DNA of 64,000 nt from Myxococcota bacterium (GTDB lineage: Bacteria > Myxococcota_C > UBA6777), in the NCBI GenBank assembly GCA_023150835.1, contig JAKLKB010000024.1, positions 4,534 to 68,533 on the forward strand, read 5' to 3'. This document shows positions 1,430-43,860 of the stretch, piece by piece. The position numbers were made by a program, and so were the translations under genes. Every line of letters begins with the position of its first letter. The first letter of the stretch is position 1. The notes under the pieces are model-generated. The model had not been told where the DNA came from and searched no databases. It worked only from the letters and a program-made list of their open reading frames with translations.

Positions 1430-1560
1430 TGTTGTGGGGTTTCACCCCGCGCCCCACAAGGGACCGATGGCCCCTTGACCCCGTATTGGCGAAGAGATCA
1501 GCGTTTTTCAGACAGACGACTCTGTTGCTTGAAACCTCGCGAACACGGCTTTTTTGGGAG
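1430..1560. repeat. ~130-bp structured interspersed element (family B), minus orientation
   Basis: Shares the core ...GGGGTCAAGGGGC...GTGTTCGCG...CAAGCGACAGAGC...TTTGAAA with copies at 8195, 16540, 18545, 27225 and 43725. Confidence 0.6.
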
Positions 1561-1616
1561 CATCTGTGTGGCTCAAGCCTATCAGAGAGAGGGTAGACAA
1601 ACGGTGGAGTAACGGG

Positions 1617-2039
1617 ATGATCGGAAAGATGCGAGCGGTGGCTTTGGAAAGAGCAGCGGTGCTCGAAGAGTTGAAGGGCCTGTTGATCGACAATCTACAT
1701 CTTTCACTACAGCCAGATGATATCGACCCTGACGCGGCGTTGTTTGGTTCGGGGCTGGGGTTGGATTCCGTCGATGCGGTGGAGTTGGTGGTTGCTGTCG
1801 AAGATCGTTTTGATCTGGATTTTTCGCGCCAGACAGCACCTTCGGAGCCTTCTTCGGCCAAAGCGAGCGATCAGGCCGAACGGACGGGGGCTTCCGCTGT
1901 GGGAGATGCTTTGAGTGGACGGCAGATCGAACAATCCATGCGGATCTTTATGCGAACGCTCAATGCTCTTGTCGACGTGATCTTGTGGGCACGCGCCCAA
2001 AGCCCGTTGGCGACGCCATCTGCGACTCGTTCTTTGTAG
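1617..2039 (+). CDS. Acyl carrier protein with an unusual ~70-aa C-terminal extension
   Basis: LFGSGLGLDSVDAVELVVAVEDRF matches the ACP phosphopantetheine-attachment helix (DS motif); the ORF is open from 1554, internal Met starts at 1617 or 1629. Confidence 0.55.
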   Translation: MIGKMRAVALERAAVLEELKGLLIDNLHLSLQPDDIDPDAALFGSGLGLDSVDAVELVVAVEDRFDLDFSRQTAPSEPSSAKASDQAERTGASAVGDALSGRQIEQSMRIFMRTLNALVDVILWARAQSPLATPSATRSL

Positions 2040-2075
2040 GCAAAAGAGACAGGCACAGAACAAAAAGACGAAGGA

Positions 2076-3248
2076 GTGCTCGGGATGGTATTGCGCGATC
2101 GGATGCAAGCAGATGTGGCGATCTGGCGAGAGGTCGATGGGGTCGAGGTTCCCGCACGCTACACGACGTTAGAGCAAGAAGTCTCGGCTTTGCGGTTTGG
2201 TGTTGGATTGAGTGATCGCTCGTATGTTTGTGTTCTGCGTTTGCGGGGGGAGGATGCTTACGACCTGTTGGATCGGTGTTGTCCGTGCGCGATGTATCTC
2301 CGCGATGGAGAAGTCCGTCACACGGTGCTTTTGTCGGAACAAGGAACCCCGATCTTGGATCTTTATGTGGGCAACGACGATGAGTCTTTTTTTGTGTTCT
2401 CGGAGGGAAAACCCGCGCAAGAAGTGTTGGCGTATTGGCGCTCGATGATCCCCGAAGGAGCGGATATCCAGATCGAGTCGTGGAATGAAACGCACGCATT
2501 GTTGGGACTCAATGGTCCCTTTGCTTGGGAGTTGCTGGCCGAGTTGGAAGGGCATCAAGTGATCGGGTTTCCATACGCGACCTTCTATCGATCTGAAGAA
2601 GAGAATCTGTTCTTTCGCCTCGGAAAGACGGGCGAGTATGGTTATGATATCTTGGTTCCGCGTGACAAGGTGGCGGCGTATTGGGCGCGTGTGTTCGAGG
2701 TTGGACGCTCTTTTGATATCTGCCCTGTCGGATTCGAGGCGTTGGAACACGCGGGGTTGGAAAACTTCTTTTTTTCGATCCGACGAGAAGGTGCGCTTGG
2801 CCTAACGCCTGTCGAGTTGCAGCTACAATGGCGTGTGTCTTACGAAAAAGACTTCTTGGGCCGTGCCGCTCTCGAAGCCGTCAAGACGAGCGATGCACGT
2901 CGCCGTGTGACGGGGATCCGCAGCGCGCATCCGTTGAGCGAGGGGGCAGCCTTGTACTGCGAAGGGGAGCGCGTTGGAGAAGTGGTGGTTGCGATGCGTT
3001 CGGTCACTTTGGGGGCGTGGATCGGCTTGGGGTTGTTGGCGTTGCCGTGGGCGCAAGCGGGTCTGGCGCTCTCGACCGAACGCGCTAAAAAGGCCGATAT
3101 GTGGACTGTTTCGATGCCCTTTGTTCGCAACTTGAGTATGTTGATCAATCCGCAAAAGCACAGTTATCGGGATGCTGCGTCTTTGGAAACGCTGCGCCGA
3201 TCTTTAAGCCAACCTGATATGTGGGTGGAAACAGCGGATGGAGCGTGA
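2076..3248 (+). CDS. Aminomethyltransferase (GcvT/YgfZ)-fold folate-binding family protein
   Basis: N-terminal LRFGVGLSDRSYVCVLRLRGEDAYDLLDRC resembles the GcvT N-terminus (VGLFDVSHMG..GxDAxxFL); GRAALEA near the C-terminal barrel. Confidence 0.5.
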   Translation: MLGMVLRDRMQADVAIWREVDGVEVPARYTTLEQEVSALRFGVGLSDRSYVCVLRLRGEDAYDLLDRCCPCAMYLRDGEVRHTVLLSEQGTPILDLYVGNDDESFFVFSEGKPAQEVLAYWRSMIPEGADIQIESWNETHALLGLNGPFAWELLAELEGHQVIGFPYATFYRSEEENLFFRLGKTGEYGYDILVPRDKVAAYWARVFEVGRSFDICPVGFEALEHAGLENFFFSIRREGALGLTPVELQLQWRVSYEKDFLGRAALEAVKTSDARRRVTGIRSAHPLSEGAALYCEGERVGEVVVAMRSVTLGAWIGLGLLALPWAQAGLALSTERAKKADMWTVSMPFVRNLSMLINPQKHSYRDAASLETLRRSLSQPDMWVETADGA

Positions 3249-3250
3249 GG

Positions 3251-3997
3251 ATGGGGAAGTTTGACGGACAAGTCGCCGTCGTGACGGGATCTTCACGGGG
3301 GATCGGTCGTGCGATCGCGATGGCGATGGCGGAAGAAGGGGCGTTTGTGTACGTGCATTATCAATCACGCGAAGACAAAGCGCGTGAGACGTTGGCGATG
3401 ATCGAAGAAGCAGGAGGGCAGGGGGCGATCTTTGGCGTAGATGTGCGCGATGCAAAGGCCGTCAACGCCGCCTTTACAGAGATATCGGCGCAGAAGGGGC
3501 CGATCGATATCTTGGTGAATAATGCGGGGATCTGTCGTGATCAGTTTTTTGCGATGATGGAAGAAGAAGATTGGCGCGACGTGTTGGAGGTGAATCTGGG
3601 CGGCGTCTACCATTGCAGCCGTGCGGTGGCGCGTTCGATGATGGCGCGTCGTCAAGGGGTGATCTTGCACGTCGCCTCGGTGGCGGGACTCCACGCAAGC
3701 TCGGGGCAGTCGAACTATGCTGCCTCGAAGGGTGCGATCTTGAGCTTGACGCGCACGATGGCTGCGGAACTCGCCCCCAAAGGTGTGCGTGTCAATGCCC
3801 TTGTTCCCGGTATGATCAACGCAGGCATGGCCGAGCGCATGGATCAGCGTATCGCACGACAAAAGCGCGAGATGATCCCTTTGCGGCGCTTTGGCGAAGC
3901 CCACGAAGTCGCCCGTGTCGCGGTGTTTTTGGCCTCGGAGGATGCCCGTTATATCGTCGGTCAGGCTTTGGTCGTGGATGGTGGCTTAACGCTGTAA
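3251..3997 (+). CDS. Short-chain dehydrogenase/reductase, 3-oxoacyl-ACP reductase (FabG)-like
   Basis: TGSSRGIGRAIA Rossmann motif, NNAG, and the S...YxxxK catalytic triad region (SNYAASKGA). Confidence 0.8.
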   Translation: MGKFDGQVAVVTGSSRGIGRAIAMAMAEEGAFVYVHYQSREDKARETLAMIEEAGGQGAIFGVDVRDAKAVNAAFTEISAQKGPIDILVNNAGICRDQFFAMMEEEDWRDVLEVNLGGVYHCSRAVARSMMARRQGVILHVASVAGLHASSGQSNYAASKGAILSLTRTMAAELAPKGVRVNALVPGMINAGMAERMDQRIARQKREMIPLRRFGEAHEVARVAVFLASEDARYIVGQALVVDGGLTL

Positions 3998-4152
3998 CCG
4001 AAGTCCTCCTCGGATACGAGATCCGCCTGTTGCGTTATCGTAAAGAGGTCGGGACAGACACAGGGGTCTGCCTAATCATAGGGCGTCTATGTACTTTGCT
4101 ACGATCACACATCATTCGGATATCGTCTAAGCCGTTGTTTTGAGAGGTATGG

Positions 4153-5169
4153 GTGATGGAACGTCGCATCTTGTGGGCTTTTCCCGGGCAAGGAACGGAA
4201 GAAGCGGGAATGGGGGTTGCGTTGGCATCGGAGTATCCGCTTGTTCGGGCGTGTTTGGAGCGGGCGTCGGATTGTTTGGGGATGGATGTGCATCGGATGT
4301 TGTTGCGGGGGAATCGGAGGATTGGAGAGACGCAGATCTTGCAGCCAGCGATCACAGCGGTGAGTGTAGGGATTGGGCGGATCTTGGAGGCGCACGGGGT
4401 GGGGCGTGGGTGGACGATCGGACATTCTCTTGGGGAGATGGGAGCGGTGTGGGCGGCGGGTGGATGGGGCTGGTCTGAAGCGATCCATCTGTCGGCGGTG
4501 CGGGGGAGTTGGATGGCGGAGGCGGCTCGACAAGTGGAAGGCGGGATGCTTGCGCTTACGGATACTTCCGAAGAAGTCTGTCAAGAAGCCATCGCGTGGG
4601 GGCGGCAGTTTGGGGCGTTTGGTTTGGCGGCACAAAATGGGCCGAGGCTGTGGACATTGACGGGGGATATCGAAGCGGTCGAAGCTGTCTTGAAGCGTTA
4701 TCCGTCTCGTCGGCTGGTGGCTTCGGGAGCTTGGCATAGTCCTCGGATGGCGGAGGCGGTGGAGCCTTTTCGTGCGGTGATGGAGGAGGCTGTGTGTAAG
4801 CTCTTGGAACGAGGTGTGCGTGACGAGGCGGCAGAGCCTTTTCGTGCGACGGTGGCGCAGGTTCCAAAAGGGCATTGGAAAGCGCATTGGATCGCGAATG
4901 CGACGGGCGATATCTGCTCTGATATCGCAGAAGTCCCGAAGCTGTTGAGTATGCAGCTAACCCAGCCGATCCTGTGGATGCTGTCGATGCAGCATTTGGA
5001 AAAAGAAGAGCTCACCGATATCGTGATCTGCGGCCCACATCGGGTCTTACAGGGGTTGTTGCGCCGTCATCTTCCGCGTGCGCGTGTCCATGCAACCGAG
5101 CATCCGCGCTTGTTGCGTGAAACGCTCGATGCTTTGGGTGATCTGCGTTCGAGAGAGGCTGTTCGATGA
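4153..5169 (+). CDS. FabD-fold acyltransferase (malonyl-CoA:ACP transacylase family)
   Basis: FPGQGTE and GHSLGE active-site motifs; its stop overlaps the next start (ATGA), which suggests translational coupling. Confidence 0.75.
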   Translation: MMERRILWAFPGQGTEEAGMGVALASEYPLVRACLERASDCLGMDVHRMLLRGNRRIGETQILQPAITAVSVGIGRILEAHGVGRGWTIGHSLGEMGAVWAAGGWGWSEAIHLSAVRGSWMAEAARQVEGGMLALTDTSEEVCQEAIAWGRQFGAFGLAAQNGPRLWTLTGDIEAVEAVLKRYPSRRLVASGAWHSPRMAEAVEPFRAVMEEAVCKLLERGVRDEAAEPFRATVAQVPKGHWKAHWIANATGDICSDIAEVPKLLSMQLTQPILWMLSMQHLEKEELTDIVICGPHRVLQGLLRRHLPRARVHATEHPRLLRETLDALGDLRSREAVR

Positions 5170-5798
5170 AGCGAAAAAAAGATGTGTTGTCGTTGGGATC
5201 AGAAGTTGTGCAGTTGTTGGTGCCGCAAAGACGGCCTTTTTTGATGGTGGATCGCGTCGAAGCCTACCAACGTGAGCCTCAAGGGTATGCGATCTGTAGT
5301 CGTTGTTTGTCGATCAACGACCCTTTTTTTGCGGGACACTTTCCTCAAATGGCCGTCTTCCCGGGCGCATTGATGTTGGAGGGGATGTGCCAAACCTCGC
5401 AGATCTTGTGTACGTTAACGATCTATCAGCGCTTCATGGAGGAACAAGGCGACGAGCCCGCGTCTCTGCTCGAAGCCTTGCGCAATCTCGAACGCGGCTT
5501 TCGCCTTGAACCCGGATACCAAGAAGAACAAGCCCGACTGTATCTTGAGCGAACACAGCAGGCCCGACGCAACAACATCGGCATGACCGCAAGCACGCAA
5601 ATGAAGTTCCTACATCCCGTCTTTGCGGGTGAACAGGTGTTTTACACTTCGCGTTTGCAGCGGCAGATGGACGAGATGTGGCGCTTTGAGGTCGAGGCCG
5701 AAGTCAACGAGAAGATCGTCGCCAAAGGCGTGGTCACGTCGATGGTTGTCCAACATCCTGCGGTCTCTTCTCTGTTGGCTGCGGTGCTTCACGGGTGA
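5166..5798 (+). CDS. FabZ/FabA-like hotdog 3-hydroxyacyl-ACP dehydratase with a ~50-aa internal insertion
   Basis: PQRRPFLMVDRV and DPFFAGHFPQMAVFPGALMLEGMCQ match the FabZ signature. Confidence 0.7.
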   Translation: MKRKKDVLSLGSEVVQLLVPQRRPFLMVDRVEAYQREPQGYAICSRCLSINDPFFAGHFPQMAVFPGALMLEGMCQTSQILCTLTIYQRFMEEQGDEPASLLEALRNLERGFRLEPGYQEEQARLYLERTQQARRNNIGMTASTQMKFLHPVFAGEQVFYTSRLQRQMDEMWRFEVEAEVNEKIVAKGVVTSMVVQHPAVSSLLAAVLHG

Positions 5799-5814
5799 GG
5801 GTGTTTTGAGTGCG

Positions 5815-7488
5815 ATGGCGATATCGATCCGAGAGATGGCTCGGAAGGACGGGAGGTTTCGAGTGAAAGAAGAGCGGGAGCGAAGTTATTGGGGATGGGG
5901 CTACGCAGATCAAGTGTTGCCTGAAAAGCTGTTGGCGCGGTTTCAAGGGACGTTGCAGATGGCGTTGGGGTTGGAGGCGTTGCGGCATCGCCAACCGTTG
6001 GGGCTTTCGGCGCTGCGGCTTCGTGTACCGCGCTTTGCATTACCCGCATCGTTGCGGGATATCTGCACGCAGGAAACGCCCGAGCGTGCAAGACACAGCT
6101 ACGGAAAAGCGTTTCGCGATGTGGTGCGCGGGCTGTACGGGCAATTCGACAACCCGCCCGATTATGTGGCCTATCCGCGAAGTGAGGCCGATATCGAGCG
6201 TTTGTTTGCGTTTTGTGGTGCATCCAACGTGGCGCTGATCCCGTTTGGTGGGGGAAGCAGCGTGGTGGGCGGTGTCGAACCTCCCCGAACAGCGGGGTAT
6301 GCGGGGGCGATATCGTGTGATATGCGCTTTTTTGATCGGGTGATACGGGTGGATCGCGAAAGTCGAACCGCAACCATCCAAGCGGGGATCTACGGCCCTG
6401 CCTTGGAGGCGGCCTTGAAGCCGCATGGCTTGACGTTGCGCCATTTTCCCCAAAGCTTCGAGTTTTCCACTTTGGGCGGGTGGATCGCAACCCGCTCTGG
6501 CGGCCATTATGCGACGGTTCAAACCCACATCGACGAATTTGTGCAGTCTGTACGGATGGTGACGCCCAAAGGTGTGTTGGAAACCCGCCCTTTACCCGGA
6601 TCGGGGGCCGGCCCAGAGCCTTCGCGTTGGGTGATCGGCTCCGAAGGGATCTTTGGCATCCTTACCGAAGCCACCATGCGCTTGCAAGATATCCCGCAGT
6701 ATCGGTCCAAAGCGACGGTGTCGTTTGCGTCTGAACCTGCGGGGTTTGCGGCGGTTCGCCAGATCAGCCAATCCGGACTCTCTCCCGCCAACTGTCGGCT
6801 GATCTCTTCGATGGAAGCTTTTAGCATGGGAGCGGGCGATGGTCGCGAGACGATCTTGTTGTTGGGGTTCGAGTCTCACGATCATCCGCAACAGCAGCGA
6901 TTGGAGCGGGCCTTGGCGATCTGCGCACAGCACGACGGCTCGCCCAAAGTCTTGCAAGGTCGGGCCTTGGACGACGAAGAGGGCGATGCTTCGGAGCGTT
7001 GGAAACAGAGCTTTTTGTTGGCTCCGTACCTGCGCGATGCGATGCTTTGTTGTGGGATCTTGCTTGAAACCTTTGAAACCGCCGTCACATGGGATCGTTT
7101 TGCTGCGTTCCATCAAGCCGTGATCGCGGCTGCGACGGATGCTTTGCAAGCACACTGCGGCGGAGGGTTGATCACATGGCGTTTTACGCATGTCTATCCT
7201 GACGGGCCTGCGCCTTATTACTCGGTGGTGGCTCCTGCCCGAGAAGGCCAAGAAGTCGAACAATGGGACGCCATCAAATCCGCTGTCTCTGACGCGATCC
7301 TCGCCTGTGGTGGCACGATTACACACCACCACGCCGTCGGCAAAGATCATCGACCTTGGTATACGCAACAGATATCCCCTCTCTTCGGCGAGATCCTCCA
7401 CCAAGCCAAACGCACCCTCGATCCCGCGTGGATACTCAACCCCGAAGTCCTCCTCCCTCCCGACCCTCCTCACTCACAACGCTCTTGA
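5815..7488 (+). CDS. FAD-linked oxidase of the alkyl-dihydroxyacetone-phosphate synthase (AGPS) family
   Basis: N-terminal YWGWGY (AGPS WNGWGY box); FAD-binding PCMH motifs PFGGGSSVVGG, EFSTLGGWIATRSGG and GSEGIFGILTEATMRL; the ORF is open from 5623, first plausible Met at 5815. Confidence 0.7.
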   Translation: MAISIREMARKDGRFRVKEERERSYWGWGYADQVLPEKLLARFQGTLQMALGLEALRHRQPLGLSALRLRVPRFALPASLRDICTQETPERARHSYGKAFRDVVRGLYGQFDNPPDYVAYPRSEADIERLFAFCGASNVALIPFGGGSSVVGGVEPPRTAGYAGAISCDMRFFDRVIRVDRESRTATIQAGIYGPALEAALKPHGLTLRHFPQSFEFSTLGGWIATRSGGHYATVQTHIDEFVQSVRMVTPKGVLETRPLPGSGAGPEPSRWVIGSEGIFGILTEATMRLQDIPQYRSKATVSFASEPAGFAAVRQISQSGLSPANCRLISSMEAFSMGAGDGRETILLLGFESHDHPQQQRLERALAICAQHDGSPKVLQGRALDDEEGDASERWKQSFLLAPYLRDAMLCCGILLETFETAVTWDRFAAFHQAVIAAATDALQAHCGGGLITWRFTHVYPDGPAPYYSVVAPAREGQEVEQWDAIKSAVSDAILACGGTITHHHAVGKDHRPWYTQQISPLFGEILHQAKRTLDPAWILNPEVLLPPDPPHSQRS

Positions 7489-7629
7489 TGGACGCCTTTG
7501 CTACAAACCCACAACGCTCTTGACGGACGCCTTCGCTACAAACCAAAACGCTCTTGACAAATTCTCCGAACACGACGAACGATCGGTCCGCTGATCTTGT
7601 TTTGCCCTTCGACCGCAAAGGAGTTTGTC

Positions 7630-8064
7630 ATGGAGATCCCCAAGTTTCTACGCGAACGTGCTGTCCAAGCCATCGATTCATTGCTTACCATCCAAGAAGC
7701 CGCCGGCCTGATGCAGATACACAACGTCGGTGCTTTGCTGGTGATCGAAGATGGCCGACTTGTCGGCCTGATCTCGGAACGCGATATCGCTTGCAAAGTC
7801 GCCGCAGAAGGTCGTGATCCAAGCACCACCCTTGTCCAACAAGTTATGACCTCCGAAGTGATCTCCGTCGTCGAAACCGATTCCCTCGAATATGCGATGG
7901 AGCTGATGCAACGCCACCACATCCGTCACCTCCCGATGATGCGCGACGGCCAAGTCCTCGCCATGCTCGGCCTCCGTGACCTCTGTGAACTCCGCGTCAA
8001 GCTCCTTCACAGCGAAAACCGCAATCTCGCTTCCATCGTCGCTCTCCACGATCAAGACGCCTGA
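7630..8064 (+). CDS. CBS-pair domain protein
   Basis: Two CBS-like units (VGALLVIEDGRLVGLISERDI ... IRHLPMMRDGQVLAMLGLRDL). Confidence 0.65.
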   Translation: MEIPKFLRERAVQAIDSLLTIQEAAGLMQIHNVGALLVIEDGRLVGLISERDIACKVAAEGRDPSTTLVQQVMTSEVISVVETDSLEYAMELMQRHHIRHLPMMRDGQVLAMLGLRDLCELRVKLLHSENRNLASIVALHDQDA

Positions 8065-8065
8065 T

Positions 8066-8160
8066 CCCGCCTCTCAAGCCCAACTACACCCCGCCTCTCA
8101 AGCCCAACTACACCCCGCCTCTCAAGCCCAGCCACACCCCGCCTCTCAAACCCAACTAGG
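8066..8160. repeat. 24-bp direct tandem repeat x4 (cgcctctcaagcccaactacaccc) immediately after the CBS gene stop
   Basis: Four near-identical units visible directly in the sequence. Confidence 0.8.
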
Positions 8161-8194
8161 TACTCCTATCCCATCGGATTGACGCGGTTGCTAA

Positions 8195-8340
8195 AAAAAG
8201 CCGTGTTCGCGCTCCTTCAAGCGACAGAGCCGTTGGTTTGAAAGACTTGTGCTCTTTTCGCCCCTCACGGGGTCAAGGGGCGGCAGTCTATGGCGGGGTT
8301 TGGGGCAACGCCCCACAAAAATCATCGAACCGCATCACTC
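8195..8340. repeat. ~130-bp structured interspersed element (family B), plus orientation
   Basis: Same consensus as 1430-1560 and the other copies. Confidence 0.6.
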
Positions 8341-8651
8341 CTCCCCTCATCGAAAAAACACCTTGAGTCCCCTTCTTTTTTCGTTGCGATCTCCGCCGAC
8401 TGTGTAGTTTTCGTAACACTTGTACAAGAAAAAAGATCGTGGTATGACAGCCACGCGTTACGCCGCAATGCCATTCAGTGCGTGACCAAGCAAGAGGAGG
8501 TGCTGGGTTTCGCAAGGATTCTTTTGGACTTGTTTGGTGCGCGTAGCGCTTGAATAACAAGCCATTGAGATGCCTTAGAACACATCATCTTGAGAAAAAC
8601 ATTGAAGAGGCGGAGGTGTCGCTGCGTTTTGCATGAGGGAGTTTTACATCG

Positions 8652-9311
8652 ATGAGGGCGTACGTCATGAGTGGGTATGATCGTTTTTCTGTAGGAGATC
8701 GAGGAAGCCTGTGGGTGGAGTCGCTGGTTTCTCCTTATCGGCGCGAAACCATCGAGGCATTGGGGGATTGTGCGGGAGGGGCTGTATTGGATCTCGCTTG
8801 TGGAGAAGGTGAGAACTTTGATCACTGGCGTTTGGGGTCGAAACATGCGCCCGCATGGGTGATCGGTGTGGACGCCTCGATCCGCAAGCTGCGCGAAGCC
8901 CACCAGCGCGTCCGTCAAGGCGGGTGGAAAAATGCAGTCCTTCTGCAAACCGAAGATTATGCTTTGGAACAGCCGTTGTTTTCGGAGTATTGGCGAAGCG
9001 ATGGTTTTGATGGCGTGGTGTGTACGTTGGGGCTGACGGCTCTCCAAGATTGGGAACAAGTGTTCTCAAGATCTTTTTCCTTATTGAAGCCGGGTGGGCG
9101 ATTCGCGATCTTGGATCGCTATACCAGCAAAGACGAATCCAATCCCGCTTCCGAAGGCACCAGTCCCGCGCCCGATTTTACACGCCGTGTCTGGGAATCC
9201 TTGGAACGTGCTTGCGATGACTTCCAGATGCGCTTTTTGGATGCTTCCCCCCGCGCTCTCGGCGGAAACCTCTATCTCGCTTCGGGAAGACGCAAACTGA
9301 TCGCCCACTAG
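8652..9311 (+). CDS. Class I SAM-dependent methyltransferase
   Basis: VLDLACGEGEN motif I; typical length. Confidence 0.55.
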   Translation: MRAYVMSGYDRFSVGDRGSLWVESLVSPYRRETIEALGDCAGGAVLDLACGEGENFDHWRLGSKHAPAWVIGVDASIRKLREAHQRVRQGGWKNAVLLQTEDYALEQPLFSEYWRSDGFDGVVCTLGLTALQDWEQVFSRSFSLLKPGGRFAILDRYTSKDESNPASEGTSPAPDFTRRVWESLERACDDFQMRFLDASPRALGGNLYLASGRRKLIAH

Positions 9312-9426
9312 ATCGCGCTTGCTTTTTTCTCCAATCGTTCCGCATCGACAGATATCGCCAAAACATCTTGATAGGGCCCGGGTATGGGGTTTTTGTCTAC
9401 TGATCCGCCCGTTGTGTGCGACCTAT

Positions 9427-9575
9427 GTAGGGGCAGCCCCCTGTGGCTGCCCAATAAAAGGGCGTCTGCGTAAAGATGTAGGGGCAGCCCTCTGTGGCTG
9501 CCCAATAAAAGGGCGTCTGTGTAAAGATGTAGGGGCAGCCCCCTGTGGCTGCCCAATAAAAGGGCGTCTACAGCA
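9427..9575. repeat. REP-like family A, three tandem ~57-bp units each containing the hairpin GGGGCAGCCCCCTGTGGCTGCCC
   Basis: Direct reading; the same unit occurs inverted at 19628-19770. Confidence 0.85.
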
Positions 9576-9617
9576 GATCGCACCTACCCTTCCCTATCAA
9601 AAGAAGGAGGCGTTTCG

Positions 9618-10316
9618 ATGCGTTTGTTTGTATTCGTGAGTTTGTTTGGCCTTTTGCTTGCCAAGGTGGAGATGTGTTCGACCCATCCATCGCTACCCGC
9701 TGAAGTGCGTGCGGAAACACCCGCCCAAGAAGACAAGTATGCGATCCCACCGCTGCCGCGTGTTCCAAACGGCGCAGAAGTGGCGATCTTTGCGGGCGGA
9801 TGCTTTTGGTGCGTCCAACCTCCTTTTGACAAACAAAAAGGCGTGCTTGCCACAAGCGTCGGATTCACGGGCGGCAGCGAAAAGAACCCCACCTACAAAG
9901 ACGTTGCCTACGGGCGAACCAGCCACACCGAAGCCTTGTTTGTGGTGTACGATCCAAAGCAGGTCACTTACGAAAAACTCTTGGATATCTTTTGGCGACA
10001 GATCCAACCCAACCAAAAAAACGGCCAATTTGCCGATATCGGGACGCAATATCGAACGGGGATTTTTTATACAAACGCGGCCCAACGCCGCGCCGCTGAA
10101 GCCTCGAAAAAAGCCATCGCTGCGAGCGGTTGCTTTCTTGCCGATATCGCCGTCGAGATCTCCAAGGCCACCCCGTTTTATCCCGCAGAAAATTACCATC
10201 AAAAGTATTATCAAAAAAATCCTTCACATTATCTGCGCTACAAGATCGGCTCGGGGCGAGCAGGTTATCTCGCCGCTCGCTGGACAGAAAAAGGCTGTCG
10301 CCCCCTCCCCAAATAA
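9618..10316 (+). CDS. msrA: Peptide methionine sulfoxide reductase MsrA (exported)
   Basis: GCFWC active site; N-terminal signal peptide. Confidence 0.8.
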   Translation: MRLFVFVSLFGLLLAKVEMCSTHPSLPAEVRAETPAQEDKYAIPPLPRVPNGAEVAIFAGGCFWCVQPPFDKQKGVLATSVGFTGGSEKNPTYKDVAYGRTSHTEALFVVYDPKQVTYEKLLDIFWRQIQPNQKNGQFADIGTQYRTGIFYTNAAQRRAAEASKKAIAASGCFLADIAVEISKATPFYPAENYHQKYYQKNPSHYLRYKIGSGRAGYLAARWTEKGCRPLPK

Positions 10317-10486
10317 GCACAGCGTCGGCGCTCGTTTCGACAGATGGGGCGTTTCTTTGGGGTGATACGATATCCTGATGTTGCGAGATCGAGTTCGGGG
10401 ATGCTCGCGAATCGATCAAGTCCAATCATCGGGGGTTTATACCGATCCGCTTGATCATGTATTGAGCGGATTTCGTAGGATGTCGT

Positions 10487-12763
10487 TCAGCGCTTGGCAG
10501 GTTGTGGCAAAGCCCGATGTTCCGAATGGGTGGCTGGGTCTGCGGCTTTGGCTACCACAAGCCGCTTGAGAGCCAACGCCGCGCTAACGCGTACTTCGTT
10601 ATCTGTGTCCTCAAGAACCTCCTTCAACGCGGAAAGCACTTCTTTGGAACCCACCCCCACCTCGCCCAAGGCTTTTGCTGCGTTCTTGCGAACCAAACCA
10701 TCTACGTCGCTGAGGGCGAAGATCAGCGCAGGGATCGCCGCACGAGCTTCTCCCTTCATCTTGCCCAGCGCCACGGCTGTATCGTGGCGCAGTTTGTTCT
10801 CCGCGTCCTTGAGGAACCGAACCAAGGTCGGGATCGCTACACGAGCTTCCACACCTATCCCACCCAATGCCTGCACAGCATTTCTGCGAACCTCCCCGCC
10901 CTTGCGTCGAAGAGTTGAAAGAAGCAACGGCACCGCCGCCACCCCCATCTTCCCCAAGGCCCACACGATATCTCGGTGAACCCAACTTTCCCCGTCCTCA
11001 AGCCCCCGAATCAAGGCTGGAATCGCTTCTTTGGCTCCCACTCCCATCTTCCCCAAGGCCAAGGCCGCTCCCTTACGAGCGAAACTCTTTTTGTATTTGA
11101 GCGTCCGAATCAAGGCTGGGAGCGCGGCTTTTGCTTTTCCTCCCATCTTACCCAAAGCTAGGGCCGCATGATAGGAGACGACGCCATCTTTATCCTTGAG
11201 AGTTCGAATCAAGGCAGGGATCGCAGAAGTGGCCTCAACGCTCATTTCCCCCAAGGCTTCGGCCACATCCTTACGAACCCCGCTATCCTTGTCTTTGAGT
11301 AACCGAATCAATGTAGGGATCGCGGCTTTGGCTTCCGCCCCCATCTTCCCCAAAGCCCTTGCCGCGCTCCTGCGAACCCAGTAATCCCCATCACCGAGCG
11401 CCCGAATCAAGGCCGAGAGCGCAGCACGAGCCTCCGCTCCCATCCCAACTAACGCCTTCGCTGCATTCCAACGAACATCGCTATCCGTGTCTTGTAGGGC
11501 TGCGATCAACGTCGGAACCGCCAACCCGCCGATCATTCCTAACGCCGATGCCGCGTACAAGCGAACGAAGCGATCTCTGTCCTTGATCGCCTGAGCCAGA
11601 GCAGGGATCGCCACATGGGCCTCCCTTCCGATCCTTCCCAACGCCTGTGATGCACTCAAACGAACGTTGTTATCCTTGTCTTGGAGAGCCTGAATCAGCG
11701 CAGGGAGCGCCGATCGAGCCTTCCTTCTCATACCCCCCAACGCAAAGATCGCAGCGTCACGAACATCGCTCTCCGTCTCGTTCAGCAGTCGCAACAGCAA
11801 CGGCATCGCTGCATCGGCCTCTGCCTCCACCCCGATTTGCCCCAACGCAAAGGCTGCTTTTTTTTGGACATCCTTCTCTTTGTCTTGGAGAGCACGGAGC
11901 AGGGCTGGAATGGCTGCCTTCGCTCTTGCTTTCATCTCGCCTAGAGCCTCCGCTGCACCAACACGAACCTTTTTGTCCTTGTGTTGGAGGGCCTTGATCA
12001 GCGGCGCAACCGCTTCCTCGCCCATCAAACCCAAGGCCCAAACACCTCCCCTGTGATCGTCGCTGTTTGGGCTTTGAAGGAGTTCGATCAACAGCGGTAT
12101 CATCCACTCGCCCATCTTCCGCAAGGCCAAGGCTCCACGAACGCGGATCTCGCGATGCTTTCCTCTAATTTGATCAAGGAGGACAGGCAGCGCACCTTTG
12201 GCCGCCACACCCATCTTCGCTAACGCCTCCGCTGCCTCCAAGCCCACGTCGCGTTCTGGATCATCAAGAGCCGTGATCAGGGATGGGATCGCCTTCGTTC
12301 CTATTCGGCCCAAAGCATAGACCGCGCCCTTACGGACCAGACGTTCATGGTTCTTGAGTGATTCGACCAAGACAGGGAGTGCCGCATCTGCCGACTCTCC
12401 CATCAAACCCAAGGCCCACACAACACGAGCGCGAACCTCCCCGTCTTTGTCCTTGACTGCTTGAACGAGCGCTGGGAACGCTGCACGAGCCTTCGGCCCG
12501 ATCTTTCCCAACGCCCATGCTGCATACGAACGCACAGAGCGATCCCTGTCCTTGAGCGCCCGAATCAGCGCTGGGATCGCCGCTTTCGCCTCTTTTCCCA
12601 TCCTCCCCAAGGCCCACGCTGCGTTTACGCGGGCTGAACTCTTCTTGCTCTGAAGTTGTTTTTGTAGGCCGATAATTCGGTCGGTATTGCCCGCGTGAAC
12701 TTTGGGGGAGAGGATAGTCAAGAGCCAGACAGCCACAAAAATTCGCCATCCTTGCTCCTGCAT
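10487..12763 (-). CDS. Secreted HEAT-repeat (PBS-lyase type) protein, ~20 repeats
   Basis: Repeating VRxxAAxALGxIG units; signal peptide begins at the internal Met (MQEQGWRIFVAVWLLTIL); the ORF is open to 12880. Confidence 0.6.
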   Translation of the reverse strand: MQEQGWRIFVAVWLLTILSPKVHAGNTDRIIGLQKQLQSKKSSARVNAAWALGRMGKEAKAAIPALIRALKDRDRSVRSYAAWALGKIGPKARAAFPALVQAVKDKDGEVRARVVWALGLMGESADAALPVLVESLKNHERLVRKGAVYALGRIGTKAIPSLITALDDPERDVGLEAAEALAKMGVAAKGALPVLLDQIRGKHREIRVRGALALRKMGEWMIPLLIELLQSPNSDDHRGGVWALGLMGEEAVAPLIKALQHKDKKVRVGAAEALGEMKARAKAAIPALLRALQDKEKDVQKKAAFALGQIGVEAEADAAMPLLLRLLNETESDVRDAAIFALGGMRRKARSALPALIQALQDKDNNVRLSASQALGRIGREAHVAIPALAQAIKDRDRFVRLYAASALGMIGGLAVPTLIAALQDTDSDVRWNAAKALVGMGAEARAALSALIRALGDGDYWVRRSAARALGKMGAEAKAAIPTLIRLLKDKDSGVRKDVAEALGEMSVEATSAIPALIRTLKDKDGVVSYHAALALGKMGGKAKAALPALIRTLKYKKSFARKGAALALGKMGVGAKEAIPALIRGLEDGESWVHRDIVWALGKMGVAAVPLLLSTLRRKGGEVRRNAVQALGGIGVEARVAIPTLVRFLKDAENKLRHDTAVALGKMKGEARAAIPALIFALSDVDGLVRKNAAKALGEVGVGSKEVLSALKEVLEDTDNEVRVSAALALKRLVVAKAADPATHSEHRALPQPAKR

Positions 12764-12861
12764 CCTCTTCCATCGTCTCGTAAAAATCCGATGCGTCGTG
12801 CTTTCCATCGAATGTTTCTCCTTTGGTAGGCGAACCCTGATTAGAAACCTCACGGCTTGGC

Positions 12862-14550
12862 CTAAATCGGTGTGATCCAAAGGGCAGAAGTGGGATGGTG
12901 GCCTTCAACGATATCGCGGGTGAGCGTCAGGGTGCGGATGCCTTCTCGCGAAGGGATCTCATAGAGGATATCGAGCATGAGCTCTTCGAGGATCATGCGC
13001 AATCCGCGTGCGCCGACTTTTTGGCGCAAGGCTTTTTCCGCGATGGCATCAAGGGCTGCCGGTTCAAAGACAAGCTGGACGCCTTCAAAGGACAACATCT
13101 GCTTGTATTGGGCGACGAGGCTGTTTTTGGGTTCCGTCAAGATCCGCACCAGCGCCGCATGATCGAGCGGATCGAGTGTTGCGCATACAGGCAACCGCCC
13201 GATCAACTCGGGCAACATCCCGTAGCGAACGAGGTCTTCGGGCAAGACTTGTCGGAGTAGATCGTCGGTGGATACGACCGATGCAAGCAGATCGCCGATC
13301 GCTTGTTCTTGCCCTGCAAGGCGGCGAGCGATGATCTCTTCAATGCCTACGAAGGCTCCACCACAGATGAAAAGGATGTTGGATGTATCGATCTGTACGC
13401 CCTCATCGCCTGATTGGCTGCGCCCCCGTGTACCCGGCAGGATGGCGCTTGTACCTTCGAGCAGTTTGAGCAGAGATTGTTGGACGCCTTCACCGGAGAT
13501 ATCCCGTGTGGCCGAAGCGGAGGGCTTTCGAGCGATCTTGTCGATCTCGTCGATGTAGAGGATCCCCCGTTCGGTTCTTTGCTTGTCGCCTTCTGCCGCT
13601 TGGTAAAGCCGCGTCAACATCTGTTCGACATCTTGGCCGACGTAGCCCGCTTCGGTCAGCGATGTCGCGTCGGCCATCGCAAACGGAACATGCAGACTGC
13701 GCGCAAGAGATTGTGCCAACAGCGTCTTTCCTGTGCCGCTTGGCCCGATCAACAGCACATTCGATTTGTGCAGTTCAACCCCGTAAGCAGGGCGCTTTTG
13801 CATGTATTCCACACGGTGATAATGGCTGTACACGGCCACCGCAAGTTTCTTTTTGGCCTGTTCTTGGGCGATTACATACCGATCCAGAAACTCCTTGATG
13901 GCGCGTGGGGTCGGAGCGTAGCCACAAGGGCGCTTTGGCAACGGAGGCGCGGAACGCACAGACGAAGAAGGCTCCTCGTGTATCGGTTGCGAAAGCGGCG
14001 TAGGCTCCTCGTGTATCGGTTGCGAAAGCGGCGTAGGCTCCTCGTGTATCGGTTGCGAAAGCGGCGTAGGCTCCGCGTGCATCGGTTGCGAAAGCGGCGT
14101 AGGCTCCGCGTGTATCGGTTGCGAAGGCGGCGTAGGCTCCGCGTGTATCGGTTGCGAAGGCGGCGTAGGCTCCGCGTGTATCGGTTGCGAAGGGGAGGGA
14201 TGGAGGGGGGGGCCATCGTCGGGGGTCAAAGAGCGAAGGGTGAGCGGGTGGTTGTCCGCATCTTGCGCGATGAAGGGTTGGATCGATCGGGCTTCGGAAG
14301 ATGCAGGAAAATGCACGCGTCGATGAGGGGCGATATCCTTCAATGTTCGGAGCCTTTCGTTTGGGTGGGGTGGTGGGCGATTTGATCCGTTGCCGATCCC
14401 GAATGTACGACAGTAGGTGGTTTGAGCCGAGTGTACGACAGTGGGCGATTTGAGCCGTTGTCGAACCCGATCGTACGATAGTGGGTGGTTTGGGCCGTTG
14501 TCGAACCCGATCGTACGATAGTGGGTGGTTTGGGCCGTTGTCGAACCCAA
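12862..14550 (-). CDS. ClpX-like AAA+ unfoldase paralog lacking the N-terminal zinc-binding domain; its N-terminus is encoded by tandem DNA repeats (true start uncertain)
   Basis: IKEFLDRYVIAQEQAKK, Walker [27 protein letters not shown] and the sensor-2 region align with the ClpX at 42313; the CxxC zinc-binding domain is absent; 8x EPTPLSQPIHE (33-bp units) precede the ATPase domain. Confidence 0.6.
   Translation of the reverse strand: MGSTTAQTTHYRTIGFDNGPNHPLSYDRVRQRLKSPTVVHSAQTTYCRTFGIGNGSNRPPPHPNERLRTLKDIAPHRRVHFPASSEARSIQPFIAQDADNHPLTLRSLTPDDGPPLHPSPSQPIHAEPTPPSQPIHAEPTPPSQPIHAEPTPLSQPMHAEPTPLSQPIHEEPTPLSQPIHEEPTPLSQPIHEEPSSSVRSAPPLPKRPCGYAPTPRAIKEFLDRYVIAQEQAKKKLAVAVYSHYHRVEYMQKRPAYGVELHKSNVLLIGPSGTGKTLLAQSLARSLHVPFAMADATSLTEAGYVGQDVEQMLTRLYQAAEGDKQRTERGILYIDEIDKIARKPSASATRDISGEGVQQSLLKLLEGTSAILPGTRGRSQSGDEGVQIDTSNILFICGGAFVGIEEIIARRLAGQEQAIGDLLASVVSTDDLLRQVLPEDLVRYGMLPELIGRLPVCATLDPLDHAALVRILTEPKNSLVAQYKQMLSFEGVQLVFEPAALDAIAEKALRQKVGARGLRMILEELMLDILYEIPSREGIRTLTLTRDIVEGHHPTSALWITPI
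14395..14545. repeat. ~45-bp tandem repeat (ccgttgtcgaacccgatcgtacgatagtgggtggtttggg) x3 at the 5' end of the ClpX-like ORF
   Basis: Direct reading. Confidence 0.7.
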
Positions 14551-14552
14551 GG

Positions 14553-16031: not shown

Positions 16032-16080
16032 CCGAATGACTCCTTTGGTTGAAGAGGCCAACCGTTGATAAGGCGCGTAT

Positions 16081-16510: not shown

Positions 16511-16539
16511 TCCTCGACCCTCCGGTGTTTCCGCCTTAA

Positions 16540-16685
16540 CAAGGCGCGTATGGGGTCTCACCCCACGCCCCACCATAGAGCTTTGCCCCCTTGACCCCGT
16601 ATCGGCGAAGCGAGCATCGTTCTTCACACAAACGACTCGGTCGCTTGAAACAGCGCGAACACGGGGGTTTTACCCCACCGCGTGA
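16540..16685. repeat. Family B ~130-bp element, minus orientation
   Basis: Consensus match. Confidence 0.6.
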
Positions 16686-29019: not shown

Positions 29020-30798
29020 CTATTGGAGTTGCCAGAAGTAGACTTTGCGAGCGCCGCGAGGCTCCATAAAGATCACGGCTTGGATGCGGCGTTGGACACG
29101 ACCGACTTGTCCGACGGCTTCGACGCGAAAGAGGTCGGTGTCGGTGGTGAGGGTGATACCTGTATTGCGGTTCATTGTAAAGCGCGGAAGCTGTTGAGGG
29201 TTGATCTGCTGCTGCATGTTGGTGGCCCCGAGTCCTTGGGTGAGGTTGGAGGGGAGGACGTTGGGATTTTCGCACCAGTTGAAGAAAGCGTTGTCGTCCT
29301 CGAAGCCGAGGTAGTTTCGCCATGTCTCCATTGCTTGGACGAATTGGAGGAAGGCAGGTTGTAGAAAGATGCTTCGATCGAAGGGGGGTTTGGGGACACC
29401 GTGAGCCATGACAAGACCGCGCAGGATGTTGATGTCGGCTTGTTGGATGTTGATCCGCAAGGGGCCGTAAACGGTGAAGAGATGGCCGAAGGTTTGGAAG
29501 AAGATATCGTCCACGCCGTAGATCAAGCGAAGCTCTTTGACCGAGTCGAGATAAGAGTTTTTGGTGTAATAGCCTTTTTCATCGTAGCGGTATTTGGAGT
29601 CTTCGGTGTTGCTGTCTTCGCCAGCGACGCGGTTGTCTGGGTCGATCCAGTCTTGTATGGCGGAGATCTGTTCTTGTCGTGTGATGCGAGTGCCGTCGGC
29701 GCGAGGGTTTTCAAACAGGGGATTGTAGCGTGGTGGGGCAAAGATGGCTTCTAATTGTTTGCGCAAGACCAAGGCTTCACGGGCGCTGTAGAAGTGGTTG
29801 AGATTGAGTTTGGCGCTTTCATCGGTGAGCGTTGCGGAAAAGCGGCCACTAAAATCTCCGAAGGGATAGAGTTGGCCTTGGTCGGTGGTACGGCCTTTGT
29901 CTTTGTCTTCGTCTTTGTTGCGTTTGGCTCGACCAAAAGCACCGCCCGCGATGGACTTGATTAGGTCGGAGTTGACGGGGACGATGCTCCAAAGCTGAAA
30001 GCGATTGAGCAACATGGCGAGTTCGGGGCGTCCACCAAGCATCTGTTTGATGCCTGCTTTGAAGGTGGACTTGATCTTGCGGAACTTGTGTTCAAAGGAC
30101 AGCAAGAGGTGGGTGAATTCGAGGGAGGATCGGGCGAGGTATTCGGCACGCAAGGCATCACGGGAGTTTGCGGCCATTTGAAGTTGGACACGCGCATCGA
30201 ATTGGAGTTCGAGCGTCAGGGAGGTGGCGAGCATCAACAAGCTGAGAACAAGCAAAAGAGCGAGGCCTCGGCTGCGCTTGGCTTGCAAGCCGATCGGCGC
30301 GGAGGGGATCGTGGTTGGGGTGGTGTTGTCGTCATAGGCGGAGGGATGGGGTGTGGAAAGACGGGGGAGAGTGGTTGAAGTGGCCGAAGTGGCGGAGGGA
30401 TGAGTGAGCGTGGTCGAAGTGGCCGAAGTGGCGGAGGGATGAGTGAGCGTGGTCGAAGTGGCGGAGTGATGGGGCGTTGTCGCACGAGCGATGTTGCGAA
30501 GGCGAGGCGAAGGAGCGATGGGGATGCCCCAGAGATGGGTGCGGCGGCGTGGTGGGCGCGTTGTGGAGGCGGAAGCTGTAGGGAGAACGGTGTTTGTTGT
30601 GGAGGCGGAAGCTGTAGGGAGAAAGGCGGTTGTTGTGGAGGCGGAAGCTGTAGGGAGAACGGTGTTTGTTATCGAGGCGGAAGCTGTAGGGAGAACGGTG
30701 TTTGTTATCGAGGCGGAAGCTGTAGGGAGAACGGTGTTTGTTGTGGAGGCGGATATCGTGGGTGGGTGGGTGGGGGAGGTGTATTTGTTTTGGGGCAT
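29020..30798 (-). CDS. gspK: Type II secretion minor pseudopilin K; the mature-like N-terminus KRSRGLALLLVL suggests the true start is near 30288 (TTG), with the upstream part encoded by tandem repeats
   Basis: GspK-like RGxALLxVL N-terminus and large periplasmic body. Confidence 0.6.
   Translation of the reverse strand: MPQNKYTSPTHPPTISASTTNTVLPTASASITNTVLPTASASITNTVLPTASASTTTAFLPTASASTTNTVLPTASASTTRPPRRRTHLWGIPIAPSPRLRNIARATTPHHSATSTTLTHPSATSATSTTLTHPSATSATSTTLPRLSTPHPSAYDDNTTPTTIPSAPIGLQAKRSRGLALLLVLSLLMLATSLTLELQFDARVQLQMAANSRDALRAEYLARSSLEFTHLLLSFEHKFRKIKSTFKAGIKQMLGGRPELAMLLNRFQLWSIVPVNSDLIKSIAGGAFGRAKRNKDEDKDKGRTTDQGQLYPFGDFSGRFSATLTDESAKLNLNHFYSAREALVLRKQLEAIFAPPRYNPLFENPRADGTRITRQEQISAIQDWIDPDNRVAGEDSNTEDSKYRYDEKGYYTKNSYLDSVKELRLIYGVDDIFFQTFGHLFTVYGPLRINIQQADINILRGLVMAHGVPKPPFDRSIFLQPAFLQFVQAMETWRNYLGFEDDNAFFNWCENPNVLPSNLTQGLGATNMQQQINPQQLPRFTMNRNTGITLTTDTDLFRVEAVGQVGRVQRRIQAVIFMEPRGARKVYFWQLQ
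30300..30790. repeat. Two tandem-repeat blocks (~39-bp x3 at 30360-30480; 36-bp x6 at 30560-30780) upstream of, or within the 5' end of, gspK
   Basis: Direct reading. Confidence 0.75.
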
Positions 30799-39366: not shown

Positions 39367-39372
39367 AGGGGC

Positions 39373-42138: not shown

Positions 42139-42312
42139 GGGGTCCTCGCGATTGTTTTTGGAGAGATTTGCGCTTTTTCTCAGAGATCAGGCATCCTAAG
42201 GATGGATCGTGCTTGACAAGCACGGTGGAAAGACCGAAAACCACAAGATCGACGCTGTTTCCCGTTTTGATCTTTTCATCTGATCGGGCAAACCCGATCC
42301 ATTGAGGCTCCG

Positions 42313-43563
42313 ATGTCCAAACAGAAAGGCCAATCGAACAAGCGACTTAGCTGTTCGTTTTGTCACAAGAACCAACATGAAGTACGAAAGCTGATCGCTG
42401 GACCCAACGTATACATCTGCGATGAGTGTGTGCAACTGTGCAACGACATCATCGCCAACGCATTTGACCCCGAAGAAGCACGCCCGTCACTGGATATCCC
42501 CAAGCCGATCGAGATCAAAGAATTTTTGGATCAGTACGTCATTGGTCAAGATCTTGCGAAAAAAGTCCTGTCTGTCGCGGTGTATAACCATTACAAGCGG
42601 GTCGAATGCCGGCCTCGTACGGGGGAAGTCGAACTTCAAAAGTCGAATATCTTGTTGGTGGGACCGACAGGTTCAGGGAAAACGTTGCTTGCACAAAGCC
42701 TCGCACGTTTTCTGGACGTGCCTTTTGCGATGGCCGATGCAACGACCTTGACCGAGGCCGGTTATGTCGGCGAAGACGTCGAGAATGTGTTGGTGAGCCT
42801 ATTACAAGCCTCGGATTACAAGCTGGAGCGAGCCGAGCGAGGCATCGTATACATCGACGAGATCGACAAGATCGCTCGAAAAAGTGAATCCGCTTCGATC
42901 ACTCGCGATGTTTCTGGCGAAGGCGTTCAACAAGCCTTGTTGCGGATGCTGGAGGGGACGGTTGCCAATGTCCCCGCCAAAGGGGGCCGCAAACATCCCC
43001 ACCAAGAGTTTATCCAGCTCGACACCACGAATATCTTGTTTGTGGTGGGCGGAGCTTTTCACGGCATCGAGAAGATGATCGAAAAGCGGATCGCAGGAAG
43101 TCAGATCGGATTCCATGCGACTGTCCGTAGCAAGAAAGACTTTCGACTGGGTGAGCTTCTGCATCAAAGCGAACCCGAGGACCTAATTAAGTTTGGTTTG
43201 ATCCCCGAGTTTGTTGGACGCTTGCCTGTGGTGGCCACGATGGATGATCTCGACGAAGCCTCTTTGCTTCGTATCCTCAAAGAGCCTAAAAATGCGCTGG
43301 TTCGGCAGTACGAAAAACTCTTTATGATGGAAGGCGTCGCGCTACACTTCACCGAAGAAGCGCTCAAGGCGATCGCCAAAAAATGCATGGAACGCCAAAG
43401 CGGCGCACGCGGCTTGCGCGCCATCATGGAATCCGTCATGCTCGACGTGATGTACGATCTCCCCTCCCTTGAAGGCGTCAAAGAGTGCATCATCGACGCC
43501 GACGTCGTTCTCCATAGCGCCCCACCCACCATGATCTACAAAGAACACAAAAAATCCGCTTGA
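42313..43563 (+). CDS. clpX: ATP-dependent Clp protease ATP-binding subunit ClpX (canonical, with zinc-binding domain)
   Basis: CSFCHK...CDEC zinc-binding domain, [18 protein letters not shown]. Confidence 0.9.
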
Positions 43564-43724
43564 ACGTTGCCGAACGCTTTGCTCTGTGGGAGAGCTTTGC
43601 TCTGTGAAAGAGCCTTGCTCTCCCCCTCGCGGCAGCAGCGAGGCTTTGCGATTTTTTGGATCTTGGGTAAAAAGGTGGGAGAACGCAGAAGAAACGGAGG
43701 TGGGAGTGGCGCGGTGGGGAAAAA

Positions 43725-43860
43725 CCCCCGTGTTCGCGGTGCTTCAAGCGACAGAGCTTTTCGGGTGAAAAACGTTGTTCTCTTCGCCGATACGGGGTCA
43801 AGGGGGCTGGGACCCCTTGCGGGGTATGGGGCAGCGCCCCATCAGAGCGATGGTGGCCTA
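43725..43860. repeat. Family B ~130-bp element between the convergent genes clpX and rpsI
   Basis: Consensus match. Confidence 0.6.

Follow-up and report, generated by a model that had tools for sequence, protein, structure and literature searches.

A hairpin-rich intergenic repeat with transposon-like ends in a Myxococcota lineage, probably a family of miniature inverted-repeat transposable elements

Copies of the repeat and the genes around them

The repeat considered here, family B, is dispersed through a 64,000-nucleotide stretch of DNA from a Myxococcota bacterium (assembly GCA_023150835.1, contig JAKLKB010000024.1, positions 4,534 to 68,533), hereafter the window, and one of its copies lies inside a type II secretion system (T2SS) operon. 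With a covariance model derived from 45 copies, six full ones are detected in the window at 116–136 bits (E ≤ 1.6e-32), in the places and on the strands given by the original prediction. Three partial copies had been claimed as well; those near 58040 and 62080 are recognised by the model as degraded copies (E = 9e-5 and E = 2e-5, respectively), but that at 16055 is not (6 bits, E = 1.4). A 17-mer taken from the original prediction and searched with up to three mismatches has six matches in the window against 0.28 expected; five of them are family B copies, and the match at 23727 is unrelated. The mean column identity of the six aligned window copies is 74%, and all window copies are intergenic in a gene context established with Pfam and a self-trained open reading frame (ORF) scorer. 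The spacings of 6.8, 8.3, 2.0, 8.7 and 16.5 kb do not fit the periodicity of about 8 kb that had been proposed, and the proposed size of about 130 bp holds for the core, whereas the whole element including its terminal inverted repeats is longer, about 168 nt.

Several copies can be compared with their counterparts in a metagenome-assembled genome, Myxococcota bacterium KLAP109, to which the window is about 92% identical over three orthologous stretches, and with loci of relatives found through pyruvate kinase (L061, L062 and L064, with amino-acid identities of 91%, 82% and 71%, respectively) or through ClpX (L190, 99% identity). Copy 1 (1422–1580, minus strand; 129.5 bits) consists of a core at 1422–1560 and a degenerate remnant of the 5′ inverted repeat, and is antisense to both neighbours, an ORF at 478–1425 (+) and gcvT at 2076–3248 (+). 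A gap of 30 nt in the comparison with the KLAP109 ortholog (L059 4247–4385) accounts for the loss of its 3′ inverted repeat, which the ortholog keeps (AGCTGCGCAAGTCCTAT). Copy 2 (8174–8343, plus strand) is full length at 170 nt, with the core at 8189–8328, the 5′ repeat TCGGATTGACGCGGTTG at 8174–8190 and the 3′ repeat GAACCGCATCACTCCTC at 8327–8343, and lies in the sense orientation between a CBS-domain gene (7597–8064) and a methyltransferase gene (8652–9311). This copy is absent from the orthologous spacer of L061, and the insert, made of a 24-mer array and the element, is bracketed by a diverged duplication, of about 24 nt or more, of the end of the CBS gene. Copy 3 (16520–16691, minus strand; core 16538–16676), with the 5′ repeat TAAGTGTCACGCGGTGG at 16691–16675 and a degenerate 3′ end, sits between pyk (−) and NADAR (+), which diverge; instead of a family B copy, the orthologous spacer of L061 contains another element with the inverted repeats of family B. 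Copy 4 (18529–18690, plus strand; core 18537–18675) has a partial 5′ repeat CGGACTTGTAGGC at 18529–18541 and the 3′ repeat CAACCACGTAAGTCCGA at 18674–18690, and is antisense to both neighbours (17301–18158 and 18716–19639, both on the minus strand). Empty sites for copies 3 and 4 were sought in L061, where the spacers do not align. Copy 5 (27178–27380, minus strand; core 27207–27347) occupies the gap between gspL and gspM and is missing the outer halves of both inverted repeats. Copy 6 (43701–43870, plus strand; core 43716–43854), with a degenerate 5′ repeat TGGGAGTGGCGCGGTGG at 43701–43717 and a decayed 3′ end, sits in the spacer where clpX (+) and rpsI (−) converge rather than upstream of a gene in its own orientation, and has a degraded ortholog in L190 (4691–4820).

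Two further loci hold remnants. At 58031–58149 on the minus strand the 3′ half of a copy is recognisable (20.5 bits), and its intact ortholog is found in KLAP109 (L039 1442–1581). The 5′ half is lost where the window has about 2.9 kb of DNA including an RCC1-repeat gene and KLAP109 has the element only, and it appears from this comparison that the 2.9-kb DNA disrupted the copy. The gene in question (58148–60403) encodes a 751-residue protein with 13 RCC1 repeats (Pfam E = 1e-121). At 62056–62137 on the plus strand a chimeric remnant, matched by the family B model at 62065–62122, joins the 5′ part (GCGATACGAAATCCG...) of a second interspersed repeat, family A, to the terminal hairpin, tail and 3′ repeat (GAACCGCGTAAGTCCGA, 62121–62137) of family B.

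Terminal repeats and the folded core

Read from its 5′ end, a complete element has the 17-mer TAGGAsTyACGCAGTkG, then a run of A, the core, a tail rich in A and C, and finally the 17-mer again as its reverse complement. The tail, which lies between the terminal hairpin of the core and the 3′ repeat, has often been amplified in tandem. Both inverted repeats are kept in 23 copies, which yield a 168-nt consensus; one end is kept in many more, and the ends have decayed in the rest. The spacing of inverted-repeat pairs falls into two sharp classes, one of 150–175 bp (25 pairs), corresponding to family B, and one of 100–125 bp (9 pairs). Identical flanks of 5–7 nt directly abut TAGG...CCTA in 6 of 33 well-bounded elements (TCCTTA, TTTGATA, TGAGA, TCTTA, TACTGA and TCTAAA), where about 0.03 would be expected by chance. 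The shorter class, mostly of 114–119 bp, has the same 17-nt inverted repeats around an unrelated cargo, and its members lie at L039 5658–5773, at L061 1618–1731, 6206–6320 and 16355–16470, and at L074 4372–4487; a 172-bp sibling at L061 9698–9869 carries yet another cargo. L061 holds these siblings without any family B copy. One sibling insertion can be seen in both states: the window has a single TCTAAA at 54571–54576 (...TTTTCTAAACTCAAG...), and KLAP109 has TCTAAA, a 116-bp element and TCTAAA again (...TTTTCTAAA, then the element TAGGACTT...AAGTCCTA, then TCTAAACTCAAG...). The target duplications and the siblings' different cargo show that the 17-nt ends are transposon ends that generate a short, somewhat variable target duplication. 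Four of the five tested features of a miniature inverted-repeat transposable element (MITE) are found in family B, namely small non-coding size, inverted repeats, target duplication and dispersed, polymorphic copies; the fifth is a cognate autonomous element, of which 1.16 Mb of lineage DNA gave no example.

Long target duplications of 20–65 nt were considered as a general property of the family and rejected, since a search of the 110 nt on either side of 62 copies detects a clearly significant direct repeat at no copies other than that in the gsp operon and its ortholog; the same scan gives one marginal case in L008, and an apparent 50-nt duplication at L059 3560 is not significant. A possible resemblance of the ends to those of Tn3 (in part, ACGC..AGTGGAA) or IS26 is too weak to use. 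The acyltransferase and FabA genes overlap in the window (5090–5250), and in L061 (16230–16600) they are separated by an insert of about 200 bp that consists of a repetitive extragenic palindromic (REP)-like unit and an element with the same inverted repeats. As judged by eye, diverged copies of the gene junction apparently flank this insert, which would make it a further case of a long duplication at an insertion into a tight junction of genes.

The conserved core of about 125 nt contains three hairpins with nearly invariant linkers between them. Hairpin 1 has a long, variable stem and a fixed apical loop GGTTTGAAAAAC, hairpin 2 has the form AAGGGnGC...GCnCCCTT, and the terminal hairpin has the form GGGGY-NNN-RCCCC. 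The element is non-coding, with no three-base periodicity by eye, frequent indels and nearly all copies clear of called genes. The RNAalifold consensus of 6 and of 45 copies gave a partial, weakly supported structure, and the helices were then built by hand and tested. On the hand-built structure 84% of cells pair, and 65 double-sided changes are observed against 30.4 ± 5 in column shuffles, none of 500 shuffles reaching the observed number. When the partners are slid by 1–3 columns, the pairing score is far lower. These hairpins are therefore real and covary, in agreement with the internal structure that had been described as conserved across copies.

The coupling of paired columns is nearly perfect (in the terminal hairpin, C-G 27 versus T-A 17; in the basal pair of the long hairpin, A-T 27 versus G-C 12), whereas dimorphic sites that belong to different hairpins show statistical independence. 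Since pairs are coupled while separate hairpins vary independently, the pattern argues for selection on pairing rather than for simple subfamily inheritance. Contrary to what had been supposed, the pairing is not strand-specific: G·U and A·C mismatches in the three hairpins number 46 versus 34, 21 versus 21 and 7 versus 5, and the folding z-score of an intact copy is −4.33 for both strands. Across 95 different cores, the base that follows hairpin C (TTG[C/T]GGGG) covaries in Watson-Crick fashion with the middle base of the triloop of the terminal hairpin. This long-range pair (core consensus positions 105 and 119) is C-G in 41 cores, T-A in 42 and otherwise composed in 12, and both positions are independent of the closing pair between them. 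Such an interleaved coupling points to a physical contact or to a templated mutation process. Inspection of the sequence did not favour two other readings of the core: the conserved loop does not fit the consensus of an integration host factor (IHF) site, and a G-quadruplex need not be invoked for the four GGGG tracts, which are already explained by the hairpins.

Distribution, turnover and placement

An exact-pattern scan of one genome per species finds at least 60 loci, and 45 of those listed are from KLAP109; the matches outside KLAP109 are single chance matches among the matches listed. In a metagenome collection, true copies occur, among the matches listed, only in contig WBZL01174122 and in sample Ga0154020, whose contigs are KLAP109-like and which is likely to be the source metagenome of KLAP109. 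The range given by both collection scans is a lower bound, and among the matches listed family B is confined to a very narrow lineage. A BLASTN search of plasmids with the consensus gave nothing meaningful, and no published description of myxobacterial MITEs was found in the literature. In KLAP109, the covariance model recognises about 60 full copies within 308 kb of loci. No family B copy is present in 62 kb of L061, L062 and L064, and L061 is syntenic with the window over about 2000–19600, the stretch that holds copies 2–4.

Copies 1 and 5 are common to the window and KLAP109 and are therefore older than the split of the two genomes, and KLAP109 has a copy, at L059 3560–3699, that the window lacks. 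L190 has two copies between clpX and rpsI, and the second, inverted one (4311–4448) lies next to clpX; its core is missing from the window, where the tandemly repeated tail is kept. The tandem array at 43580–43650 of the window is the amplified tail of this copy still present in L190. Five short-read Logan contigs whose ClpX is identical to that of the window (L185–L189) all end about 60–86 nt past the clpX stop codon, probably because assembly breaks in the repeat-rich spacer downstream of clpX. Orthologous cores are 84% and 92% identical and the adjacent spacers 89% and 94% (two ortholog pairs only), and the differences strike core blocks that are otherwise invariant. The mean divergence between copies, about 26%, is far above that between orthologs, and the diversity must therefore have arisen among source elements before insertion.

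Of 68 copies, all except about seven are clear of called genes. The 52 copies with both neighbours called comprise 18 in the sense and 18 in the antisense orientation, 8 between convergent and 8 between divergent genes, as expected from random insertion into spacers. The distance to a gene boundary is shorter from the 3′ end of the element than from its 5′ end (medians of 49 and 120 nt, p = 0.0016). An Rfam scan, suggested along with the original prediction, gave no family match: there is no match in the window at the gathering threshold, no credible match with E ≤ 10 around copy 6 (43650–43900) and none with E ≤ 0.1 in three KLAP109-type loci with intact copies. ARAGORN detects no tRNA-like fold, and neither promoter-like (sigma-70-like) nor terminator-like sites are found inside the four copies scanned (window 1–20000). 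Promoter and terminator roles were considered and are not supported. The lack of a sigma-70-like site in the four scanned copies speaks against a promoter cargo; an intrinsic terminator or attenuator on the sense strand is not indicated, as the terminal hairpin is followed by ACAA... and not by a U-tract; and a reverse-strand terminator, formed by a long-range stem and a T-run, does not agree with the random orientation of copies, which also lie inside co-directional gene pairs, and the scan finds no such site.

In the T2SS operon, a GspL-like gene (27361–28989, with PilM_2/PilN domains) is followed by gspM (26564–27139), and the Pfam gene context bears out the earlier claim that a copy lies in the operon's orientation in the gap of 221 nt between them. 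This copy is flanked by a 24-nt direct repeat, GCAGCCCCCTTGACTGCTGA(A/G)ACA, at 27380–27357 and 27201–27178, of which the upstream unit covers the last gspL codons and the stop codon (27363–27361); the repeat is significant both here and at the KLAP109 ortholog (L024 3483–3622). The gspL–gspM gap is only 36 nt long in the relative L064, which has no family B copy there, and family B accounts for the 221-nt gap. Since the same arrangement is present in KLAP109 (L024), the gsp copy seems to be an old, stably tolerated insertion common to two species. The mRNA strand continues after the last hairpin of this copy with ACAACC... and not with a U-tract. Nothing supports an attenuator role of this copy or a regulation of the secretion operon by it; an effect on RNA processing may exist.

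Interpretation and neighbouring repeats

Family B is best explained, with a probability of about three in four, as a non-autonomous DNA transposon (MITE) of about 168 bp whose core folds for propagation and which is a passenger neutral for the host. Its inverted repeats, 5–7-bp target duplications, copy number within a narrow lineage, presence/absence differences and random orientation agree with the MITE that the original prediction had offered as one of its options. A putative transposase supplied in trans would recognise the 17-nt inverted repeats and insert the element at A/T-rich intergenic sites, duplicating 5–7 bp of the target, and the same ends would also mobilise at least one other cargo, that of the 116-bp element. 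The fold would be required in cis for the propagation of active copies rather than for a host function, either through binding of the transposase or a host factor or through a single-stranded DNA stage. Inserted copies, including that between gspL and gspM, would be tolerated passengers that decay. Family B is thus probably a new MITE family and, though unusually hairpin-rich, an ordinary kind of selfish DNA.

Several observations weigh against this explanation. Recognisable inverted repeats are present in only about one third of the copies, and the core is better conserved than these repeats, whereas a typical MITE shows the opposite; the length of the target duplication also varies (4–7 bp). 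The clean empty/filled pair belongs to the 116-bp sibling and not to family B itself. No autonomous element or transposase with these inverted repeats is found in 1.16 Mb of DNA of the lineage, and the inverted-repeat pairs 0.3–6 kb apart that were sought as an autonomous partner all prove to be two MITE copies. The long (24 nt or more) duplications of upstream gene ends around two window copies (2 and 5) also count against it, because a 5–7-bp staggered cut does not explain them. Finally, the strong position-specific conservation of the core and the tertiary-like pair of positions 105 and 119 imply that the fold has some function. It is conceivable, though unlikely, that the core is a compact folded single-stranded module, either one whose fold may be needed for mobility, as a structured single-stranded DNA or RNA intermediate or as a cofactor of, for example, a hairpin-binding or RNA-guided transposase, or a mobile structured non-coding RNA carried on transposon ends.

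A structured RNA, acting in cis as an attenuator or processing site or encoded by dispersed small-RNA genes, with the inverted repeats merely forming a closing stem, would also show covarying hairpins. It would agree with the lower RNA folding energy of the forward strand in 53 of 64 cores, with the 105–119 pair, which suggests a tertiary contact in a single-stranded molecule, and with an outer stem that in some copies varies in sequence yet stays complementary. However, the copies have no orientation bias relative to genes and no wobble asymmetry, G·U being about as frequent as A·C in all three hairpins and the z-scores equal on both strands. In addition, there is no Rfam match, the four scanned copies lack promoter-like and terminator-like sites, orthologs drift as fast as their flanks and lose bases of invariant blocks rather than being conserved in place, one copy is destroyed in the window, and the target duplications and the sibling element with another cargo show that the ends are those of a transposon. 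The small-RNA and attenuator roles proposed earlier are for these reasons quite improbable. Selection on structure that is equal on both strands is expected of DNA hairpins, which brings in an element like REP/REPIN or IS200/IS605 that moves as single-stranded DNA hairpins by means of a Y1 (HUH) transposase, for example a REP-associated tyrosine transposase (RAYT). Classical REP-like units (GTAG and a hairpin GGGCAGCC...GGCTGCCC) are abundant in the same genomes, and a TnpB (IS605 OrfB) gene occurs in a relative, though at a locus without a family B copy. REPINs and IS200/IS605 elements are not known to have terminal inverted repeats or target duplications, whereas family B has both; no conserved GTAG-type tetranucleotide abuts its hairpins, and no RAYT or TnpA gene was seen beside any copy, no systematic search having been made. 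A Y1-dependent origin is accordingly judged improbable.

A DNA element domesticated by the host and kept for the cell, either as a platform for nucleoid proteins or gyrase in the manner of BIME and RIP or as a bidirectional barrier to transcription or replication, could account for the near invariance of the linker blocks and the apical loop, for the mostly intergenic placement and for the proximity of the 3′ end to gene boundaries. Against this, close relatives have no copies in the same spacers, copies are lost or degraded without replacement and are not conserved in place, and orientation and spacer type follow the random expectation, so that domestication is very improbable.

By analogy, the MITE family proposed here may work like the Correia elements, the Tn3-derived TIMEs and other bacterial MITEs. 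Correia elements (CREE/NEMIS) of Neisseria are non-coding, about 100–160 bp long, bounded by terminal inverted repeats and present in hundreds of copies; they are mostly intergenic, occur in either orientation and sometimes inside operons, and their transcript folds into a long hairpin. They are not known to have an autonomous partner. Their inverted repeats measure 26 bp, their target duplication is TA, they contain an IHF site, and promoter, terminator and RNase III effects are documented for them. Family B has no sequence similarity to them and differs in its 17-nt repeats, its 5–7-bp duplications and its conserved multi-hairpin core, and no promoter or terminator signal was found in the four family B copies scanned. 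Tn3-derived TIMEs are likewise non-autonomous, with transposon-type inverted repeats and a target duplication of about 5 bp, and in both groups one kind of end is found around different cargos and other DNA can be enclosed by two copies. Tn3-family inverted repeats are about 38 bp long and start with GGGG, whereas the ends of family B are 17 nt long and start with TAGG, its duplications are of 4–7 bp, and no Tn3-type transposase was found. With REP, BIME and REPIN sequences family B has in common that it is short, intergenic and palindromic, a mosaic of hairpins and conserved linkers with compensatory changes on both strands, and restricted to narrow lineages. REPINs, however, are palindromes of 20–40 nt defined by a conserved tetranucleotide beside the hairpin and a linked RAYT gene, and neither the tetranucleotide nor the gene was found for family B (RAYT genes were not searched for). 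The ERIC/IRU and RUP/BOX repeats resemble family B as imperfect palindromes of about 100–130 bp in transcribed intergenic regions in both orientations, but differ in sequence and taxa; family B has clear transposon ends and shows turnover between genomes that are about 92% identical.

Family B explains inflated spacers in this uncultured Myxococcota lineage and is a marker of very recent genome dynamics between genomes of about 92% identity. Less ordinary are a fold that is more conserved than the ends, hairpin modules that vary independently while their pairs are coupled, and ends that carry different cargos. If the fold is indeed needed for transposition, family B would be a useful natural system for structure-dependent mobilisation.

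Family A consists of REP-like units of the GTAG-and-hairpin kind, often in tandem, within an element of about 130 bp that has inverted ends of its own (GATACGAnATCCG...), and fits the description of REP sequences far better than family B does. Its copies in the window lie at 4011–4142, 9425–9577, 17167–17272, 19627–19794, 24228–24359, 51029–51160, 53935–54024 and 55709–56076. The copies at 4007–4129 and 24233–24346 are absent from the orthologous KLAP109 loci, and family A is therefore mobile too. The TnpB gene of the relative L062 (12484–13662, OrfB_IS605/Cas12f-like) lies near pyk, and the L062 DNA examined contains no family B copy.

Intergenic tandem arrays lie beside the repeat elements at 8042–8182 (a 24-mer in five units), 16087–16506 (136-nt units) and 18261–18512 (a 42-mer in six units), in addition to the array near clpX; the first of them ends in a sequence resembling the 3′ inverted repeat (CCAACTAGGTACTCCTA). 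Another array, at 61769–61978 (a 42-mer in five units), may lie in coding sequence. About 600 bp of the window (24906–25515) are absent from the KLAP109 locus L024 and hold an ORF of 101 codons (25120–25425). The ORF at 10487–12880 encodes 797 residues with 99-nt (33-residue) repeats, and the syntenic L061 appears to be without a gene there. Tandem repeats in predicted coding regions are also found at 13936–14232 (33 nt, in an ORF at 12862–14550) and at 30524–30789 (36 nt, in a GspK-like ORF at 29020–30798), and these two probably encode repetitive, low-complexity protein segments.

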